DNA from: Candidatus Gottesmanbacteria bacterium
GTDB lineage: Bacteria; Patescibacteriota; Microgenomatia; UBA10105; UBA927
Direction: 5' to 3'
Assembly: GCA_030679255.1 (NCBI GenBank)
Contig: JAUXTO010000042.1
Span: 110,714-158,781, forward strand
Length of the DNA: 48,068 nucleotides
A program made the translations under genes and the position numbers. Below, in pieces: positions 3,918-44,036 of the stretch. The notes under the pieces were generated by a model that saw nothing but the letters and a program-made list of their open reading frames with translations, made no database searches and was not told the origin of the DNA. Each line of letters begins with the position of its first letter. Within the stretch, counting starts at the first letter, position 1.

Positions 3918-4358
3918 ATGAAAAAACTAATTGCAATAGCAATTATCCTCGTCGGGATATTTTCTATTTGGTTTTATTCTCGGCATCCTCTTCAAACAAC
4001 GGTAACCGTCCGAAATACGACTTTCATTGTTGATGTCGCCGTCACAGCTAAGGAAAAAGAAGTAGGATTGGGTAATAGAGGCTCACTTACTCCGGACCGG
4101 GGAATGCTTTTTGTGTATGATATCAAGGCGAGATATCCTTTCTGGATGCGTAATATGCACTTTCCGATCGATATTCTCTGGATTGATGACCGGACGATCG
4201 TCGATATATCCAAAAATGTTCCGACTTCAGATAAGCCGTTAAACCAGCTTCCCATTTATCACCCAAATGTTCCCGTAGATAAGATATTGGAAGTCAATGC
4301 GGGCCTCGTGGATGAATACGCTATTACTGTTGGAGATAAGATTGTCATTAAAAATTGA
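3918..4358 (+). CDS. DUF192 family protein
   Basis: GL..R..L..DRGMLFVY, FWMRNM.FPIDILWI, ILEVNAG. Confidence 0.85.
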   Translation: MKKLIAIAIILVGIFSIWFYSRHPLQTTVTVRNTTFIVDVAVTAKEKEVGLGNRGSLTPDRGMLFVYDIKARYPFWMRNMHFPIDILWIDDRTIVDISKNVPTSDKPLNQLPIYHPNVPVDKILEVNAGLVDEYAITVGDKIVIKN

Positions 4359-4364
4359 CTCTAG

Positions 4365-4680
4365 CGCTCCCAGAGGGAATCCCTGCCCGCTAGCGCCTGA
4401 GCCTAGCTCTGGCAGGCGGGGAACCTTCATTTCCTCTTTACCTGCCCGCCGCGCCATTAATAAAAAAGTACGGCTGTATGCGCTCCCGGTGGGAATCGAA
4501 CCCACAACCTACTCTTTAGAAGAGAGTTGCTCTGTCCATTGAGCTACGGGAGCCTATCGGTAATTATACAACGGGTTAAGATTTTCTGCGCGCTTTGGCA
4601 GGCGGGGAAGAGAGGTGCCCCGCCTGCTACACCTCCAGCGTAGCTCTGGCGGGCAGGTCTATCCGTTGAGCTATGGGAGC
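4365..4680 (-). pseudogene. Interrupted outer tRNA-Arg(TCT) with three palindromic insertions, one containing an intact tRNA-Arg(TCT)
   Basis: Joining 4680-4658, 4618-4607, 4440-4421 and 4381-4365 gives GCTCCCA TAGCTCAACGGATAGAGCA CCTCT CTTCTAA AGAGG AAAT GAAGG TTCGATT CCCTC TGGGAGC G, a full cloverleaf. Confidence 0.85.
4481..4553 (-). tRNA. tRNA-Arg(TCT), nested
   Basis: Acceptor GCTCCCG/CGGGAGC, anticodon arm ACTCT-CTTCTAA-AGAGT. Confidence 0.95.
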
Positions 4681-4685
4681 GTAAG

Positions 4686-4756
4686 AGCGGGTGAAGGGAA
4701 TCGGACCCTCGTACCGAGTTTGGAAAACTCGTATTCTACCATTGAATTACACCCGC
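4686..4756 (-). tRNA. tRNA-Gly(TCC)
   Basis: Acceptor GCGGGTG/CACCCGC, anticodon arm CGAGT-TTTCCAA-ACTCG; T-loop TCCGATT. Confidence 0.92.
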
Positions 4757-4796
4757 GATTTCCCTATTATATCGTATGCGCAATACTATGCACCAG

Positions 4797-5855
4797 ATGA
4801 AGCTCTTTTTACTGCTCTTTATATTTCTTCTTGCTCGACCGGCAATTGCCATCTATGATCCGCTTTCCGTCCCGAATAACAAATATGGCATCCATGTGGC
4901 TGATCCTAATGATATATCCAAAGTGAAAGATCTGGTCAACTCGACCCAGGGGGATTGGGGATACGTTACGTTGGTTATACCCGATAACGAACGCCGCGTC
5001 GATGTTTGGCAGCCGGTATTTGAACGCATGAAACGCGATCATCTGATCCCTATTGTGCGACTTGCGACCCATGTAGAAGGTGGCGTGTGGATAAAGCCAT
5101 CACTCACTGACGCTCATGTTTGGGTAAATTTTCTCAAAGAACTCCCGTGGCCAACAAAAAATCGCTATATCATTCTATTTAATGAACCGAACCATGCAAA
5201 AGAATGGGGTGGAACGGTCAGCCCTCATGAATACGCGGATGTTTTTATGGCCTATGCAAACGCCTTGAGACAGGCATCAGAAGACTTTTTTATCCTGCCT
5301 GCCGGTCTGGACGCGTCGGCGCCCAACGGCCGCGATACCATGGATGAGGAATTATTTTTGCGGTGGATGATTATCCAACAACCAGACATTCTCAACGTCA
5401 TGGATGGTTTAACCTCACACTCTTACCCCAACCCGGGATTTTCCGGATCCCCTTATGCGCAAGGTCGGGGAACACTGAGGACATATGAATGGGAACTCAA
5501 GGTTCTTGCCGATCTCGGGTCTACAAAGAGACTTCCGATATTCATTACTGAAACTGGCTGGGCACACAATGGGAATGCAGGAAAACAAACCCGATTGTCA
5601 CCGGACGATGTGAGTCAGTACGTGGAAATTGCTTCAAAGACTGTCTGGAATAACCCCCAGATTGCCGCGGTGACGCCGTTTCTTTTTAGCTATCAAGATG
5701 GCCTCTTTGCTATGTTTTCCTGGCTGCGTTTGACTACACGCGAGCCTTATTCCTTCTACCGATCATATCAACACATTGCTAAAATGAAAGGCGAACCGCT
5801 TACCTATCCAACGAACGACTATCTCGCTCTCATTGCTCACCCGCTTAACCTCTAA
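4797..5855 (+). CDS. Secreted clan GH-A-like glycoside hydrolase
   Basis: Signal peptide, FNEPN acid/base motif, SHSYP, IFITETGW nucleophile motif. Confidence 0.7.
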   Translation: MKLFLLLFIFLLARPAIAIYDPLSVPNNKYGIHVADPNDISKVKDLVNSTQGDWGYVTLVIPDNERRVDVWQPVFERMKRDHLIPIVRLATHVEGGVWIKPSLTDAHVWVNFLKELPWPTKNRYIILFNEPNHAKEWGGTVSPHEYADVFMAYANALRQASEDFFILPAGLDASAPNGRDTMDEELFLRWMIIQQPDILNVMDGLTSHSYPNPGFSGSPYAQGRGTLRTYEWELKVLADLGSTKRLPIFITETGWAHNGNAGKQTRLSPDDVSQYVEIASKTVWNNPQIAAVTPFLFSYQDGLFAMFSWLRLTTREPYSFYRSYQHIAKMKGEPLTYPTNDYLALIAHPLNL

Positions 5856-5882: not shown

Positions 5883-5977
5883 GGTGATCCCCGCCTGCAA
5901 CGCCTGAGTTTTGCGATGGCGGGCAGGGTAGCATCGTCCATAGGACGACTAGCCTATGGCTAGCAATGGTAGTGCAC
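5883..5977 (+). pseudogene. Duplicated tRNA-His 5' segment interrupted by two palindromic elements
   Basis: GGTGATC[38 nt]GTAGCA[30 nt]CAATGGTAGTGCAC rejoins to the exact first 27 nt of tRNA-His (6292-6318). Confidence 0.85.
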
Positions 5978-5989
5978 TAATTTGAAAAA

Positions 5990-6253
5990 ATGTATTATCT
6001 TTATTTTTTAAAGAGTTTAAAAAATCAAGAAGTATATGTAGGAAGTACCTCTAAACACCCGGAGGTGCGACTACTTGAACACAATAACGGTTCCAATAAG
6101 TGGACTAGACAAAATAGACCGTTAAAGTTAGTCTATTTTGAAAAATATCACTGCAATAAAGATGCAAAGTCTAGAGAATTATTTTATAAATCAGGGGTAG
6201 GAAAAGTTGTAAAAAATATAATAATTGAAGCCTTTGAAAAGATTTCTAAATAA
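5990..6253 (+). CDS. Small GIY-YIG nuclease family protein
   Basis: YYLYFL…YVGST…RLLEHNNG…T…RPLKLVYFE…A..RE…KSG.G. Confidence 0.9.
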   Translation: MYYLYFLKSLKNQEVYVGSTSKHPEVRLLEHNNGSNKWTRQNRPLKLVYFEKYHCNKDAKSRELFYKSGVGKVVKNIIIEAFEKISK

Positions 6254-6257
6254 TATA

Positions 6258-6287
6258 TCGTCCATAGGACGACTAGCCTTTGGCTAG
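6258..6287. repeat. 30-nt double-hairpin repeat (second copy at 5934-5963)
   Basis: TCGTCCATAGGACGA-CTAGCCT(T/A)TGGCTAG occurs as a direct repeat on both sides of the GIY-YIG gene. Confidence 0.85.
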
Positions 6288-6291
6288 CATT

Positions 6292-6364
6292 GGTGATCGT
6301 AGCACAATGGTAGTGCACCAGCTTGTGGAGCTGGGCGTTGCGGGTTCGAATCCCGTCGGTCACC
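6292..6364 (+). tRNA. tRNA-His(GTG)
   Basis: G-1, acceptor GTGATCG/CGGTCAC, C73, anticodon arm CCAGC-TTGTGGA-GCTGG. Confidence 0.95.
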
Positions 6365-6400
6365 CATTCGACAGGCTCAGGGTTTACGACCCAAGACAGT

Positions 6401-6716: not shown

Positions 6717-6734
6717 ATCCCGTCGGTCACCCCA
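6717..6734 (+). repeat. tRNA-His 3'-end copy 1
   Basis: ATCCCGTCGGTCACCCCA. Confidence 0.9.
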
Positions 6735-7995: not shown

Positions 7996-8014
7996 AATCC
8001 CGTCGGTCACCCCA
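7996..8014 (+). repeat. tRNA-His 3'-end copy 2
   Basis: AATCCCGTCGGTCACCCCA, preceded by the REP-like GAGAAGTTTATACTGAGCTTGCCGAAGTA. Confidence 0.9.
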
Positions 8015-8795: not shown

Positions 8796-8815
8796 GAATC
8801 CCGTCGGTCACCCCA
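8796..8815 (+). repeat. tRNA-His 3'-end copy 3
   Basis: GAATCCCGTCGGTCACCCCA, preceded by the REP-like GAGAAGTTTACCCTGAGCGAGTCATCGAGTCGAATGGG. Confidence 0.9.
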
Positions 8816-13416: not shown

Positions 13417-13487
13417 CCTGCCCGCAATCGCCCTGCCCGAAGCTGCTGCATCGCTGCAGGCGGGTACGCTCAAGCGTTGCAGGCGGG
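13417..13487. repeat. Nested CCTGCCCG…GCAGGCGGG palindromic elements
   Basis: An inner copy at 13432-13464 lies inside an outer copy at 13417-13487. Confidence 0.8.
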
Positions 13488-20549: not shown

Positions 20550-21413
20550 ATGTCCTACATCGGCTTTGCGTGGATTACGGCCATACTGTATTCATCGAGT
20601 TTTCTTGTTGGGAAATACTCGACCAAACATAAAATCGCCAATCCATGGCTTTATAATTTTATCTGGTCTTTTATCATCGTCATACTGTCAACGATAATCG
20701 CAATTTTTCAAGGCGCCGGCATTCCGCACGATTGGAGAAGTTTGGTACTTGCCGGTTTTCTTTCCGCAATTGCCTCGGTGACCTATACATTGTCCATATA
20801 TTTACTCGATGTCACCGTTCTCGGGCCGCTCTATAACTTCAGAACGCCTATGGCTGTATTATTGGGAGTACTCATGTTTGGAGAAAAGCTATCAATGAAT
20901 CAGATGATGCTCATCGGTATCATGACCATAGCGGGAATGTTTATCAGTATGGACGAACGGTTTAGCATACGTACTTTTTTTCGCAAACCCATTGCCTTTG
21001 CCTTGCTGACTATCGCTGTCTCCGCACTTTATAACGCTAGTTTAAAATATGCAAGCGTTCAAAACGGCTATTGGAGCACGGTTTTGTGGTTTAATATCAT
21101 AAATCAGGTGTTTCTTGTCGTCACGGTACCGTTATTTTGGAAAGAATTGCACCGCGTGAGACCCACAGATTATATTCACGTTTCTATTTCTGCAGTCTTG
21201 GCTGGCCTGGGTGGTATCACGGTCATCCCGGCACTCCTTGGAAACTTAGGCATTACGGCAGCAATTTTATCTCTTCCTATCGCTATGGTGATTGCCATTG
21301 CATTATCCGTTGTCGCGCCACACCTCTTAGAAAAACATCCCTGGAAGGTGTATGCGGTGCGTCTCGGTGCCGCAGCCGTTATGTTTGGCAGCGCACTCAT
21401 GCTTTCCCGCTAA
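20550..21413 (+). CDS. EamA/DMT family transporter
   Basis: About 10 TM helices; LLGVLMFGEKLS motif. Confidence 0.8.
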   Translation: MSYIGFAWITAILYSSSFLVGKYSTKHKIANPWLYNFIWSFIIVILSTIIAIFQGAGIPHDWRSLVLAGFLSAIASVTYTLSIYLLDVTVLGPLYNFRTPMAVLLGVLMFGEKLSMNQMMLIGIMTIAGMFISMDERFSIRTFFRKPIAFALLTIAVSALYNASLKYASVQNGYWSTVLWFNIINQVFLVVTVPLFWKELHRVRPTDYIHVSISAVLAGLGGITVIPALLGNLGITAAILSLPIAMVIAIALSVVAPHLLEKHPWKVYAVRLGAAAVMFGSALMLSR

Positions 21414-21429
21414 GCAATTTTTCCGTTTG

Positions 21430-21677
21430 AGCCCAGAGAAGGAATTGTCATGCGAAGCGTGATTTGGCTTCGCCAGAAACCCACGACCGAGTTCTTACCG
21501 CGCTCGCCGCGCCTACCTTGAGCCCAGAGAGGGAATTGAACCCTCGACCTCTTTCTTACCAAGAAAGCGTTCTGCCGCTGAACTATCTGGGCGCTATGGC
21601 GGGCGAGCCAAGAACTCGCTCCCCGCCTGCAACGCTTAGCCTAGCATTGCGGGCAGGTACCACTGAGCCATTCGGGC
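21430..21677 (-). pseudogene. Interrupted outer tRNA-Thr(GGT) with three insertions, one containing an intact tRNA-Thr(GGT)
   Basis: Pieces 21677-21658, 21621-21608, 21497-21478 and 21447-21430 join to GCCCGAA TGGCTCAGTGGTAGAGCG AGTTC TTGGTAA GAACT CGGTC GTGGG TTCAATT CCTTC TCTGGGC T. Confidence 0.8.
21521..21592 (-). tRNA. tRNA-Thr(GGT), nested
   Basis: Acceptor GCCCAGA/TCTGGGC, anticodon arm CTTTC-TTGGTAA-GAAAG. Confidence 0.95.
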
Positions 21678-21729
21678 GCAATAAAGACAATTGTATCATG
21701 GATAAATAATTGTATGAAGTACAAAAAAC

Positions 21730-22494: not shown

Positions 22495-22806
22495 ATGCTT
22501 ATCCGAAAACGACTCATCGATAAAACGACCAGATTAAGCACACTGACCAATGCAATTGCCCATCGGTATCGTTTAGCAATACTCTATTTATTGGCCCATG
22601 ATCCGAAGGAAACGAGGGAACTTGCTTACGCCCTTGCGATACGGGAACCGCTCCTCATTCATCATGTACAAATTATGGTCAAATCAGGCTGGCTCAGACG
22701 GATTAAAACCGGCAGGCATGTGACGTATGAGTTGAAAGAAGATTGCGCTATAGAACTCAAGAAGTTTTTAGGAGATACTCCGTTTTTTCGTAATTTGAGC
22801 CGATGA
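22495..22806 (+). CDS. ArsR family winged-helix transcriptional regulator
   Basis: AIAH.YRL.IL.LL…….ELA..L.I….L.HH…M..SGW….K.GR.V.Y.L. Confidence 0.75.
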   Translation: MLIRKRLIDKTTRLSTLTNAIAHRYRLAILYLLAHDPKETRELAYALAIREPLLIHHVQIMVKSGWLRRIKTGRHVTYELKEDCAIELKKFLGDTPFFRNLSR

Positions 22807-22998
22807 TCCCGCTTAGCGGGACAACCTTCGCTTTATCCCAGTACCATTTAGCTCGCCTTTGTTTGGAGCCTCCCAACAGAATCGAACTGTTATCAGCGGT
22901 TTATCCCAGTACTTCTTGCTGGCGACACTATTGAGCTGGCGGGGAGGATCGGACTCCCGACCTACTGTTTATCCCAGTACCATTTAGCCGACGTCTTG

Positions 22999-23070
22999 AG
23001 CCGACGAGAGGATTTGAACCTCCAACCTTCGCTTTACAAAAGCGCTGCTCAACCATTGAGCTACGTCGGC
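22999..23070 (-). tRNA. tRNA-Thr(TGT), innermost and intact
   Basis: Acceptor GCCGACG/CGTCGGC, anticodon arm GCGCT-TTTGTAA-AGCGA. Confidence 0.93.
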
Positions 23071-23084
23071 GTAAATGTACGGGA

Positions 23085-23129
23085 CTAACTCACAGTATAA
23101 CTCACTTCGTTCGCTAACTGTGAGTTGAG
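23085..23129. repeat. 45-nt hairpin element (second copy at 23301-23345)
   Basis: CTAACTCACAGTA…CTCACTTCGTTCGC..ACTGTGAGTTGAG, two near-identical copies at tRNA anticodon split points. Confidence 0.85.
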
Positions 23130-23476
23130 CAAAACAGTTGCTCGGACTTTATCCGCCTCTGGCGGAACTGAGCTACGCCAGCTTAGAAGTACGGGATCCC
23201 GCACCTCTAAGCCAAATTGTACAACAATTTGGCAAGATGGTGCTGGGACAAAACCGTCGCTCTGCCGTTGAGCTAGGGAGGCGAGCATAAATGTACGGGA
23301 CTAACTCACAGTATTACTCACTTCGTTCGCAAACTGTGAGTTGAGCAAAACAGTTGCCCCGCCCGCTACGCCTGAGCGTTAGCTCTGGCGGGCAGGTCTA
23401 CCACTGAGCTACGCCAGCAACTCGTATTGAAATTGTACCAAAGACTACGAAGATCAACAACATTTGAGGTTAAAGA

Positions 23477-23698
23477 GTGGAAGTAAAGAAATAATTCCGC
23501 CTGCCAGCAATGCTTACGCAAAGCGTTTGCAGGCTGGCCCGGTAGGATGAAGGTATTTTCCCCGATTTGATCAATCGGAAGGACCGTCTCACTGACCAAG
23601 GCCAGTGAAGAACTTTAGTCCTGTCTCCTGCGCCAAAAATTGGTGCAGAATACCTCATTGTTCATGATTTTGTGGAGGAAAATATTCTCCATCTCCAC
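23477..23698 (-). ncRNA. Putative 6S-like rod-shaped RNA carrying two palindromic inserts
   Basis: Minus-strand TTGACA-17-TAAGCT promoter upstream. Terminal stem GTGGA/TCCAC, stems ATGAGGTATT/AATACCTTCAT and AGGAC/GTCCT around a central bubble, apical TCACTGGCC/GGTCAGTGA; no convincing ORF. Confidence 0.5.
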
Positions 23699-41927: not shown

Positions 41928-44036
41928 ATGATTCTCATCATCGTCGAATCACCAACGAAAGCCCGCACCCTTACCCGTTTTCTTAGCGGCAAAGGCGACT
42001 ATCGCGTGGAAGCCACCATGGGCCACATACGGGATTTGCCCAAAGCTACACTTGGGGTCGACTTGGATCATGATTTTGCGCCAAGTTACATCATTCCCAA
42101 AGACCGTCAGAAAAGAGTCGGAGAACTCAAAGCACTCGCCAAAAAAGCCGATTCTGTCATCCTTGCAACTGATCCGGACCGCGAAGGGGAAGCAATCGCT
42201 TGGCATGCGGCGAGCTTACTCGCGGATAGTCGTCAGTCGTCAGCCCGCCTGCAGGCGCCTGGAGCGCCAGCGACTGGCGGGCAGGTCGTCAGTCGTCAGA
42301 AAAAAAATAAAAAGTCTGAAGGCAGAAAGCTGACCGCTGATAGCTTCCGTCGTATCATCTTCCACGAAATTACGGAGTCGGCAATTCATGAAGCAATCTC
42401 ACAACCGAGGGAAATAGATCTCAAACTCGTGGATGCCCAACAAGCCCGCCGGGTCCTTGACCGCCTCGTCGGATATAAACTCTCTCCGCTTCTCTGGCAA
42501 AAACTTTCCCGCCGGTGGCTTTCTGCCGGCCGCGTCCAATCCGTGGCGGTACGACTGATCGTAGAACGGGAAAGAGAAATAGAAAAGTTTGGGAAAGAAG
42601 AATTTTGGACAATCGAGGGCAAATTTCTATTATCCAATTCTCAAATTAACGCGCAATTAGTAAACAAAAACGGAGAGAAATACGAAAAATCACTAACGTA
42701 TACGCTTTTTGATGGAACGTATACGACCACCAGTTCGTCAATAGACAATAAACAAAAAGCAGAAAGCGTTATAGCGGATCTTCGATCTCCCTACACAGTG
42801 TCGGCCGTCGATACGAAAGAAATCCGCCGGAGCCCGCCGCCGCCGTATACCACAAGTACCCTTCAGCAGGATGCGGGGCGACGATTAGGATTTTCAGCCA
42901 AACGCACGATGCAACTTGCGCAAAAATTGTATGAAGAAGGCATTATTACCTACCACCGGACGGACAGTGTCAATTTAGCGGAAAAATTTATCGGTGAAGC
43001 ACGAGCGTACATCGAACTCACGTATGGCGCCCGGTACTCACCGGAGAAGCCACGCCGCTACCAAACCAAGTCCAAACTTGCCCAGGAAGCACATGAAGCA
43101 ATCAGGCCGACGGACGTAGGAATGACCAATGACCAATTTCCAAATCCCAATGCGGAACTCAACCGAGATCACCATCGTCTCTATGGTCTCATCTGGAAAC
43201 GGGCCTTAGCGTGCCAGGTGAAAGAGGCAGTGTTTGATTCGACCACGATCAAAATCGCAAGTGGCAATGGCTACCAGTTCGAGCTACAGGGATCAGTCAT
43301 CAAATTTGACGGCTATCTCATAGTGCTCGGTCGCGAGACCGATGGTGAGGCTCAGCTACCTCGCGTATCGGTAGGAGAAATCGTCACATTAGACGCTACG
43401 AGTCCTTCCGAACATTTCACTATGCCTCCGCCACGATATACGGAAGCCACCCTCGTTAAAGCTCTCGAAGAAGCCGGGATAGGCCGTCCGAGCACGTATG
43501 CTCCAATTATTTCTACGATACAGGAACGCATGTATATCGCCAAAGAAGAAAAAAAATTGGTCCCTACTGATCTCGGATTTTCCGTCACGGACTTTCTCGT
43601 GCAATATTTTCCTACCATACTCAAGCTTCCATTTACCGCCCATATGGAAGATGAATTCGATCAGATTGCAGCGGGCTCCAAGGCATGGCAACCGGTTATC
43701 CGCGATTTTTATACACCATTTGCCGTTGAGCTTGCTCAAGCCTACGAATCTGCAGAAAAAGTGAAAATGCCCGTAGAGACGCTCGATGAAAAATGTCCTG
43801 ATTGCGGGTTTGCTCTCGTCATCCGTACTGGCCGGTATGGCAAGTTCATCGCATGCAGCACGTTTCCTGCGTGCAAATACAGCCGTCAACTCATCGAAAA
43901 GATCGATAAGCTATGCCCCCGCTGCGGGGGAGATATCATTGTCAAAAAAAGCAGAAAACGAGGAAAAACGTTTTATGGATGCGGCAATTACCCGACCTGT
44001 ACGTTTGCCGCATGGAAGAAGGAAGATATAAAATAG
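41928..44036 (+). CDS. topA: DNA topoisomerase I
   Basis: IVESPTKA, ATDPDREGE, SAGRVQS, ITYHRTDS, AHEAIRPT, GIGRPSTY, C-terminal zinc ribbons. Confidence 0.97.
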   Translation: MILIIVESPTKARTLTRFLSGKGDYRVEATMGHIRDLPKATLGVDLDHDFAPSYIIPKDRQKRVGELKALAKKADSVILATDPDREGEAIAWHAASLLADSRQSSARLQAPGAPATGGQVVSRQKKNKKSEGRKLTADSFRRIIFHEITESAIHEAISQPREIDLKLVDAQQARRVLDRLVGYKLSPLLWQKLSRRWLSAGRVQSVAVRLIVEREREIEKFGKEEFWTIEGKFLLSNSQINAQLVNKNGEKYEKSLTYTLFDGTYTTTSSSIDNKQKAESVIADLRSPYTVSAVDTKEIRRSPPPPYTTSTLQQDAGRRLGFSAKRTMQLAQKLYEEGIITYHRTDSVNLAEKFIGEARAYIELTYGARYSPEKPRRYQTKSKLAQEAHEAIRPTDVGMTNDQFPNPNAELNRDHHRLYGLIWKRALACQVKEAVFDSTTIKIASGNGYQFELQGSVIKFDGYLIVLGRETDGEAQLPRVSVGEIVTLDATSPSEHFTMPPPRYTEATLVKALEEAGIGRPSTYAPIISTIQERMYIAKEEKKLVPTDLGFSVTDFLVQYFPTILKLPFTAHMEDEFDQIAAGSKAWQPVIRDFYTPFAVELAQAYESAEKVKMPVETLDEKCPDCGFALVIRTGRYGKFIACSTFPACKYSRQLIEKIDKLCPRCGGDIIVKKSRKRGKTFYGCGNYPTCTFAAWKKEDIK

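Follow-up and report, generated by a model that had tools for sequence, protein, structure and literature searches.

A complete tRNA-Arg(TCT) gene lies within the anticodon loop of a second, older tRNA-Arg(TCT) gene in a Candidatus Gottesmanbacteria bacterium from groundwater, and we read this locus, with a probability of about 0.75, as a resident gene that was split by a mobile cassette and whose outer halves are now a relic. According to this explanation, a non-autonomous element of 166 bp would have split the resident tRNA-Arg(TCT) at the DNA level between positions 35 and 36, bringing with it a −10 box together with a whole tRNA-Arg(TCT) that belongs to a different allele type, and the insertion would have been tolerated in a genome of single-copy tRNA genes because the element supplies the function that it destroys. 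The inner tRNA-Arg would be the working gene and the outer halves the relic. The cassette family would have spread through this class of the CPR with varied tRNA cargo and matching anticodon-loop sites, and repeated rounds of insertion would have given rise to nested stacks. Insertion was precise and left no duplication, the outer gene is the ancestral one, cargo and target match recurrently, and inner and outer genes are co-oriented.

Architecture and ancestry of the nested tRNA-Arg locus

The stretch of DNA analyzed here, referred to as the window, comprises 48,068 nt (contig C29:110714-158781; contig JAUXTO010000042.1 of assembly GCA_030679255.1). The genome is 1.45 Mb in 44 contigs, with 46.9% GC and 95% completeness; the rRNA is bacterial (16S), and the nearest relatives of the DUF192 protein encoded beside the tRNA locus were found in Patescibacteria (CPR) assemblies. 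ARAGORN detected 47 intact tRNAs, nearly all single-copy, among which the inner gene of the nested locus is the only tRNA-Arg(TCT). It also detected a tRNA-Ile(TAT) and just one uninterrupted CAT tRNA, and neither ARAGORN nor a pattern search of the genome gave a tRNA-Asn, for which gaps among the 44 contigs could account.

The outer gene is divided into four pieces by three inserts (Table 1), which lie in the 3' strand of the D stem (between GA and GC), in the anticodon loop (between CTTC and TAA, position 35/36) and in the T loop (between TTC and GATT). Joining the four pieces without the inserts gives 72 nt, called as tRNA-Arg(tct) by ARAGORN, with perfect acceptor, D and anticodon stems and one A·C pair in the T stem. 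This is the cloverleaf that the first-pass annotation had drawn after removal of the same three inserts, and its coordinates are correct on the minus strand. Related termini had also been claimed for all three inserts; each has CCTGCCCGC/GCAGGCGGG-type ends, one insert in one orientation and two in the other, and the corresponding pattern matched 6 times in the window versus 0 in 100 shuffles. Likewise, the 166-nt anticodon insert does hold a different intact tRNA-Arg(TCT), recognized by both ARAGORN and Rfam (74.3 bits). In predicted folds of the inserts alone, a continuous stem runs from their ends, starting exactly at the junction. The T-stem mismatch does not reflect decay; uninterrupted genes of relatives share the A·C pair.

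Table 1. Coordinates of the nested tRNA-Arg(TCT) locus, its neighbors and related features (positions in the window unless a contig is named)
Feature	Coordinates	Strand	Remarks
DUF192 gene	3918..4358	+	Pfam PF02643, 92.4 bits; convergent with the tRNA locus; synteny anchor
Terminator-like hairpin	4375-4359		made by outer piece 4 and downstream bases
Outer piece 4	4365..4381	-	remaining T loop, T stem 3' strand, acceptor 3' strand, discriminator
Insert 3, cargo-less hairpin, 39 nt	4382..4420	+	T loop; orientation opposite to insert 1; missing in X2 contig
Outer piece 3	4421..4440	-	loop from position 36 (TAA), anticodon stem 3' strand, variable loop, T stem 5' strand, TTC of T loop
Insert 2, cassette, 166 nt	4441..4606	-	missing in X2 contig; homologues in L015/L056 and L112
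Cassette 3' arm	4455-4441	-	
Cassette T-rich trailer	4479-4456	-	
Inner intact tRNA-Arg(TCT)	4480..4553	-	ARAGORN; Rfam match 4480/4481-4553
Cassette leader with TTGTATAAT box	4596-4554	-	
Cassette 5' arm	4606-4597	-	
Outer piece 2	4607..4618	-	remaining D stem, anticodon stem 5' strand, loop to position 35 (..CTTC)
Insert 1, cargo-less hairpin, 39 nt	4619..4657	-	arms CCTGCCCGC...GCAGGCGGG; inside D stem 3' strand; missing in X2 contig
Outer tRNA-Arg(TCT) piece 1	4658..4680	-	acceptor 5' strand, D stem 5' strand, D loop, 2 nt of D stem 3' strand; matches L001 uninterrupted gene and X2 contig
tRNA-Gly(TCC)	4685..4756	-	4 nt upstream of outer tRNA-Arg; same adjacency in L002, X2 and X5
In-frame hairpin copies (examples)	42244-42285; G000:C27:22408-22443		16 other copies
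RAYT-like Y1 genes (G000)	C25:3617-3952; C25:49002-49229; C17:37895-38125; C40:64085-64315; C36:20144-20389		

The ancestry of the outer gene was examined in the interval between DUF192 and tRNA-Gly in related genomes, the comparison that the first-pass annotation had suggested for deciding which Arg copy is older. The outer gene is identical at 68/72 positions, the A·C pair of the T stem included, to an uninterrupted tRNA-Arg(TCT) by DUF192 in a genome of the same genus (G001; L001/L011), and at 61/73 positions to the inner gene, which is of a different subtype, having a 5-nt variable loop and another T stem and being closest to genes of other genera. In another relative (L002), tRNA-Gly(TCC) adjoins tRNA-Arg(TCT), as it does the outer gene here. 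A contig from an independent groundwater run (X2) matches positions 4212-4365 and 4658-4862 of the window (differences at 14/154 and 5/205 flank positions, respectively), and between 4381 and 4658 it has just 32 letters, corresponding to pieces 3 and 2 without interruption; none of the three inserts is present, and there is neither target duplication nor footprint. The empty X2 locus shows the outer gene to be the resident and each of the three inserts to be a precise insertion at the DNA level. A contig from a third study (X5) likewise carries one uninterrupted tRNA-Arg beside tRNA-Gly. The outer tRNA-Arg(TCT) is the ancestral member of the Gly(TCC)-Arg(TCT) pair, as the adjacency in L002, the match to L001/L011 and the X2 empty site agree in placing it, and its pieces are those of a true tRNA gene rather than unrelated flanking DNA, the same gene being held uninterrupted by relatives.

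The cassette itself is bounded by 10-bp imperfect inverted arms (CCCGCCTGCC...GGCGGGCAGG); this exact arm pair is rare, occurring in 2/301 genomes of the class. Its TTGTATAAT box (TATAAT, −10) lies 13 nt before the inner tRNA, and in six relatives TATAAT occupies the same position upstream of a tRNA-Arg. A consensus promoter scan called no promoter for the inner gene, and the box is a putative promoter on the basis of our reading of the sequence and its conservation in relatives. In the predicted RNA fold of the cassette, the arms pair and the inner cloverleaf forms. Related cassettes carry other alleles: one genome (G015; L015/L056) has the same 5' arm and leader after the CTTC of a different outer tRNA-Arg, and its inner tRNA-Arg is of the allele type that is outer in the genome studied here; the whole cassette occurs with a third tRNA-Arg allele in L112; and in a further genome (G034; L020), where an inner tRNA-Arg is likewise present, the outer tRNA-Arg carries a hairpin at the same D-stem position. 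Three tRNA-Arg alleles are thus carried by cassettes with near-identical arms and leader, which simple copy-and-move does not predict and for which cargo exchange or gene conversion is needed. The 39-bp copies in the relic may have arrived before, with or after the cassette.

Nested tRNA genes in this genome, in relatives and in metagenomes

About 10 of the 47 intact tRNAs in the genome are flanked by same-strand halves of an older gene. Halves were found around Arg TCT, Arg CCT, Thr TGT, Thr GGT, Ile GAT, Trp and Pro GGG, a 5' half only beside Thr CGT, and a 3' half beside Pro CGG and Leu CAA. These are mostly hand readings, some with ARAGORN or automated support. The outer anticodon could be read at eight loci (Arg TCT, Arg CCT, Thr TGT, Thr GGT, Ile GAT, Pro GGG, Trp CCA and Leu CAA), and at all eight it is the same as the inner one, with the two genes co-oriented. 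One arm family is common to the Arg TCT, Thr GGT and Ile GAT cassettes, a second is shared by Trp and Thr TGT, and a third by both Pro genes. The outer genes at Leu CAA, Thr GGT and L112 are clearly decayed or lack one half.

Automated searches recovered part of these loci. A T-arm scan in which any insert was permitted gave only noise, and in its restricted form 6/42 stray T arms lay within 110 nt of a same-strand intact tRNA; a finder based on acceptor matching picked up 5/47 loci versus 0-3 in 20 controls. ARAGORN with long introns returned mostly chimeras of neighboring tRNAs, its useful intron calls being Trp, Thr TGT, Ile and fMet only, with wrong anticodon labels. Searching by brute force for split anticodon arms next to each tRNA did not discriminate (47/47 loci versus 42-47 with shuffled anticodons), and an Rfam scan of window positions 1-25000 at relaxed E-value detected no tRNA fragments. 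The fMet call is an initiator-like tRNA(CAT) (G000:C23:86575-86835; L049 325-515, minus strand) whose anticodon loop is interrupted by a group I intron of 189 nt (Rfam RF00028, 56.3 bits, E 1.7e-13), and ARAGORN misses this gene without the intron option.

A multilayered stack is found at the tRNA-Thr(TGT) locus (window 22737-23507), which is nested at least three deep around an intact gene. Its 5' halves end at 23346, 23249 and 23130 and its 3' halves start at 22971, 22903 and 22835, all split at 35/36 and bounded by an arm family (TCCC...GGGA) unlike the Arg arms; the first-pass annotation was right in assigning this locus the same position and different arms. After excision, ARAGORN called tRNA-Thr(tgt) for 23130 joined to 22971 and for 23249 joined to 22903, and also for 23346 joined to 22971. 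The third 3' half pairs with none, leaving two complete outer layers and a third 5' half, and each new layer lies in the previously intact copy. Elsewhere in the window (21380-21720), an older tRNA-Thr(GGT) in a more advanced state of decay holds another tRNA-Thr(GGT) (21520-21592) in its anticodon loop. The D loop of the older gene contains a 36-nt hairpin (21622-21657), and its T loop a different one of 30 nt.

Similar arrangements were seen in relatives. Among 20 regions around hairpin copies in relatives, at least 7 have either a nested Leu gene or a relic that bears the hairpin in its D or T loop and adjoins an intact tRNA of its own kind, and the T-loop site of insert 3 was also struck in other genera. 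Nested Leu, Thr, Arg CCT and Ile loci are found at syntenic places in several genera, and the syntenic Leu(CAA) locus shows three different arrangements in three genera.

Metagenomes were then scanned with the 18-nt 5' arm, giving 116 stretches, 80 of which were fetched. Most of the fetched loci (58/80) are GC-rich (0.6-0.7) and probably unrelated, and 68/80 have no tRNA beside the arm. The remaining 12/80 (GC 0.36-0.55) have a tRNA directly after the arm or, for Arg, after the leader, with Arg (two loci), Ile TAT (seven), Gly, Met and Ala as cargoes. In all 12, the sequence upstream of the arm is the 5' half of a co-oriented tRNA, which runs into the anticodon loop and has the same anticodon as the cargo; the split is at 35/36 in 11 of them and at 37/38 in Ala. 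Some Ile loci are near-identical, so that about 9 or 10 distinct outer genes are represented among the 12. A 3' arm was recognizable at 10 loci, and after arm-to-arm excision ARAGORN called the outer tRNA at 4 of these, the other 6 having further inserts or decay. The same inner Ile(TAT) allele is found inside at least four different outer genes, and the anticodon stems of the outer Ile(TAT) genes vary among loci and yet remain paired, as would be expected if genes still live when they were hit had been invaded separately. Overall, at least seven different tRNA species are bounded by these arms, each located in a matching gene. It had been proposed from the Arg locus that elements of this family can have as cargo a tRNA that matches the interrupted gene, and this now extends to the 8 readable loci of the genome and to 12/12 metagenome loci.

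The hairpin family and possible modes of mobilization

The hairpin pattern has 31 copies in the genome and is present in 24/41 related genomes, whereas the reversed-pattern control gave 0 in all genomes. The arms start with CCTG or CCCG; the flanks are variable, those on the 5' side including CTTC, CTTA, TTCA, TAGA and GTTC. The copies are predicted to fold modestly better than shuffles (z −0.8 to −2.3; for insert 1 as DNA, −10.6 kcal/mol, z −2.3), and 28/31 keep the T·G and C·A mispairs in their 9-bp arms, which suggests that the shape is recognized on one strand. By eye, 8/35 hairpin copies carry a tRNA or sit in the loops of tRNA relics; an automated junction test placed 3/31 copies in tRNA relics, and each of 20 random controls gave 0/31. 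The GGTGGACTAGCT flanks of three further copies had a tRNA-like look, but these copies follow a small terminator-like hairpin and were rejected as relics. Many copies (18/31, one of them in an IF-2-like gene) lie in frame within open frames of 150 codons or more, and 12 of these 18 belong to a unit that also comprises AAAGTC repeats and lengthens the product by about 23 residues. Some copies lie inside the loop of another copy of the family (window 13417-13464; G000:C40:57921-57989), giving 47-69-nt forms, so hairpin loops seem to be insertion targets in themselves.

The element would move as DNA by means of an enzyme supplied in trans. A Y1/HUH (RAYT-like) transposase is our leading candidate for this enzyme, proposed tentatively and as a possibility rather than a probability. 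Insertion of a stem-ended unit without duplication, together with the conserved mispairs, resembles the substrates of Y1 HUH transposases, and Y1_Tnp matches were found 9 times in the genome (four IS200-like and five RAYT-like) and in 35/41 relatives. The connection is nevertheless circumstantial and in part contradicted. The RAYT-like genes (Table 1) are unlinked to the element, each being flanked by its own other, perfect palindromes, and they scored under the NCBIfam cut-off (36 and 66 bits versus 80). Furthermore, hairpin and Y1 counts are not tightly related over the 41 genomes (for instance, 4 hairpins and no Y1 in G010, and 9 Y1 and no hairpin by the strict pattern in G015), and no Y1 gene was found in the 12 metagenome cassette loci (45 kb). 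One RAYT-like gene has an in-frame TAG; this broken copy is located at a distance of 350 nt from the Pro(CGG)/Arg(CCT) nested loci, in a neighborhood that recurs in another genome (G019). The IS200-like copies are at contig ends.

The match between cargo and target may come either from the lethality of unmatched hits on single-copy tRNA genes or from insertion guided by the cargo. In a bolder version of the latter, which we regard as rather doubtful, the cargo would be the address: the carried tRNA would pair with its resident homologue and displace the sense strand, this strand would fold, and its anticodon loop would be cut and joined to the hairpin-ended element. The outcome would be a homology-guided, co-oriented replacement of alleles, that is, a natural drive for tRNA genes across the CPR.

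Alternative explanations and relation to known systems

The alternative that survives best, although we consider it unlikely, is homing, in which a site-specific nuclease would cut the DNA of the anticodon loop and repair would copy the filled allele of a relative. Precise insertion without duplication fits such a process, as do the fixed position (35/36 in 11/12 metagenome loci and in most loci of this genome), the Thr(TGT) layers, each inside a previously intact copy, and the lack of any linked transposase among our findings. However, homing needs homologous flanks, and the same cassette occurs in outer genes of quite different sequence; cargo-less copies are present at many unrelated sites, open frames included; and no candidate nuclease was identified.

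It is quite unlikely, in our estimation, that no mobility was involved at all and that an old local rearrangement, or an imported tRNA fixed once, was simply inherited, the arms serving to insulate the folding of the inner tRNA from the outer halves. The predicted RNA fold, in which the arms close off the inner cloverleaf, would suit this explanation, as would a cassette to which no transposase is linked and nested Leu, Thr, Arg CCT and Ile loci that are syntenic in several genera. On the other hand, a close relative retains the empty site (X2) with few differences in its flanks, and the syntenic Leu locus has three arrangements in three genera. The same arms surround at least seven tRNA species, each in its matching gene, one Ile(TAT) inner allele occupies at least four outer genes with paired stem changes, and cargo-less copies with the same arms are scattered, 18/31 of them in long open frames.

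We find it very improbable that the inserts are removed at the RNA level and that the outer tRNA is still made, in the manner of archaeal multi-intron tRNAs or of the intervening sequences in rRNA that RNase III cuts. In favor of this, the outer pieces show almost no damage (68/72 to a live relative, all stems paired), each insert is a stem-loop beginning exactly at the junction, and the fMet gene shows that a true intron exists in another tRNA of the genome. Against this, neither the tRNA splicing endonuclease (PF01974) nor RtcB (PF01139) had a match in this 95%-complete genome, the controls being matched in 4 archaea and in 10 genomes, respectively. Rfam gave no intron family at the locus, and the group I ribozyme model (RF00028), which detects the fMet intron, had no match in the window. 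The hairpins occur in both orientations within one tRNA, close relatives have a tRNA-Arg gene without the inserts, and other outer genes are decayed or half missing (Leu CAA, Thr GGT, L112). Cutting without ligation would leave four fragments, with one break inside the anticodon, and the outer gene is redundant because the inner gene has the same anticodon. An assembly artefact, in which the tRNA-Arg genes of two strains were stitched together with repeats, can practically be disregarded: the genome is metagenome-assembled in 44 contigs and the elements are repeats, but a separately assembled 27,122-nt contig from the probable source run, perhaps from the same reads, has a depth of 28 and shows 0 differences over positions 4200-4900, unrelated assemblies contain the same architecture, and the misassembly that the first-pass annotation had named as a risk at this locus is not borne out.

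The reading of a resident gene split by a mobile cassette can be set beside several known systems. Archaeal tRNA genes may contain multiple introns with bulge-helix-bulge (BHB) motifs at non-canonical positions, up to three per gene. The present genes are similar in having up to three interruptions (D arm, anticodon loop and T loop) that are related across different tRNAs, and dissimilar in their bacterial host, in the absence of EndA and RtcB matches, in the occurrence of both orientations and in the intact tRNA of the same anticodon inside. Like homing group I introns and inteins, the cassette would insert selfishly at a conserved position in a gene that the host needs and cancel its own damage; it differs in that the damage is cancelled by a replacement gene and not by splicing, and in that the locus has no ribozyme match. 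Phages, ICEs and islands that integrate into tRNA genes also target an essential tRNA gene, restore its function and leave tRNA fragments. They are, however, kilobases long, encode an integrase, replace the 3' part of the tRNA and generate direct repeats, whereas the elements described here are 104-166 bp, contain no protein gene and carry a whole tRNA, with the old halves nested around it. Fragments of tRNA genes left by large integrated elements have been described (PMC9897764).

The hairpins resemble REP/REPIN and RPE sequences in being short imperfect palindromes with tens of copies per genome, mispairs kept in the stem and no target duplication, and RAYT-like genes are present in the genome, as in REP/RAYT systems. 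The REP families treated in PMC3733652 have a GTAG/CGTC tag at one end. Unlike them, the present family has no such tag, and the RAYT-like genes are flanked by other palindromes. Rickettsia palindromic elements (RPE) have many copies in frame within protein genes, a likeness borne by the 18/31 in-frame hairpin copies. For REPs and RPEs, we know of no tRNA cargo or tRNA-loop sites, and found none in the open-access literature. MITEs of DDE transposons have inverted arms, as the cassette does, but the X2 empty site shows no target-site duplication at any of the three inserts. PATEs (IS200/IS605-derived) are characterized by a lack of duplication, distinct left and right subterminal hairpins and insertion 3' of one fixed tetranucleotide; here, duplication is likewise lacking, one stem is formed from both ends and the 5' flanks are variable.

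We found no description of a nested tRNA-in-tRNA gene in bacteria in open-access papers and bioRxiv, and the cassette appears to represent a strategy, so far undescribed, by which a mobile element can strike a gene essential to its host without harm. If this is true, a protein-less element of about 100-170 bp lands in the middle of an essential single-copy gene by carrying a full replacement, and turns indispensable itself as the old copy decays. It would also account for the fragments and hidden relics of tRNA genes that CPR genomes contain, offer tRNA alleles a means of horizontal turnover, and make the recognition of one fixed anticodon-loop position by an insertion machinery testable. The annotation of tRNA genes in the CPR is affected, in that standard callers miss the relics and the interrupted genes, and the mobilizing enzyme, once found, may serve as a site-specific insertion system.

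Traces of another kind were seen around tRNA-His(GTG) in the window (5890-6365), where a duplicated leader and D-arm fragment lies about 360 nt upstream across an AT-rich insert. A hairpin copy is located nearby (5890-5927), and downstream of tRNA-His there are three direct repeats of its 3' end (6717-6732, 7996-8012 and 8796-8813), as integrated elements leave.
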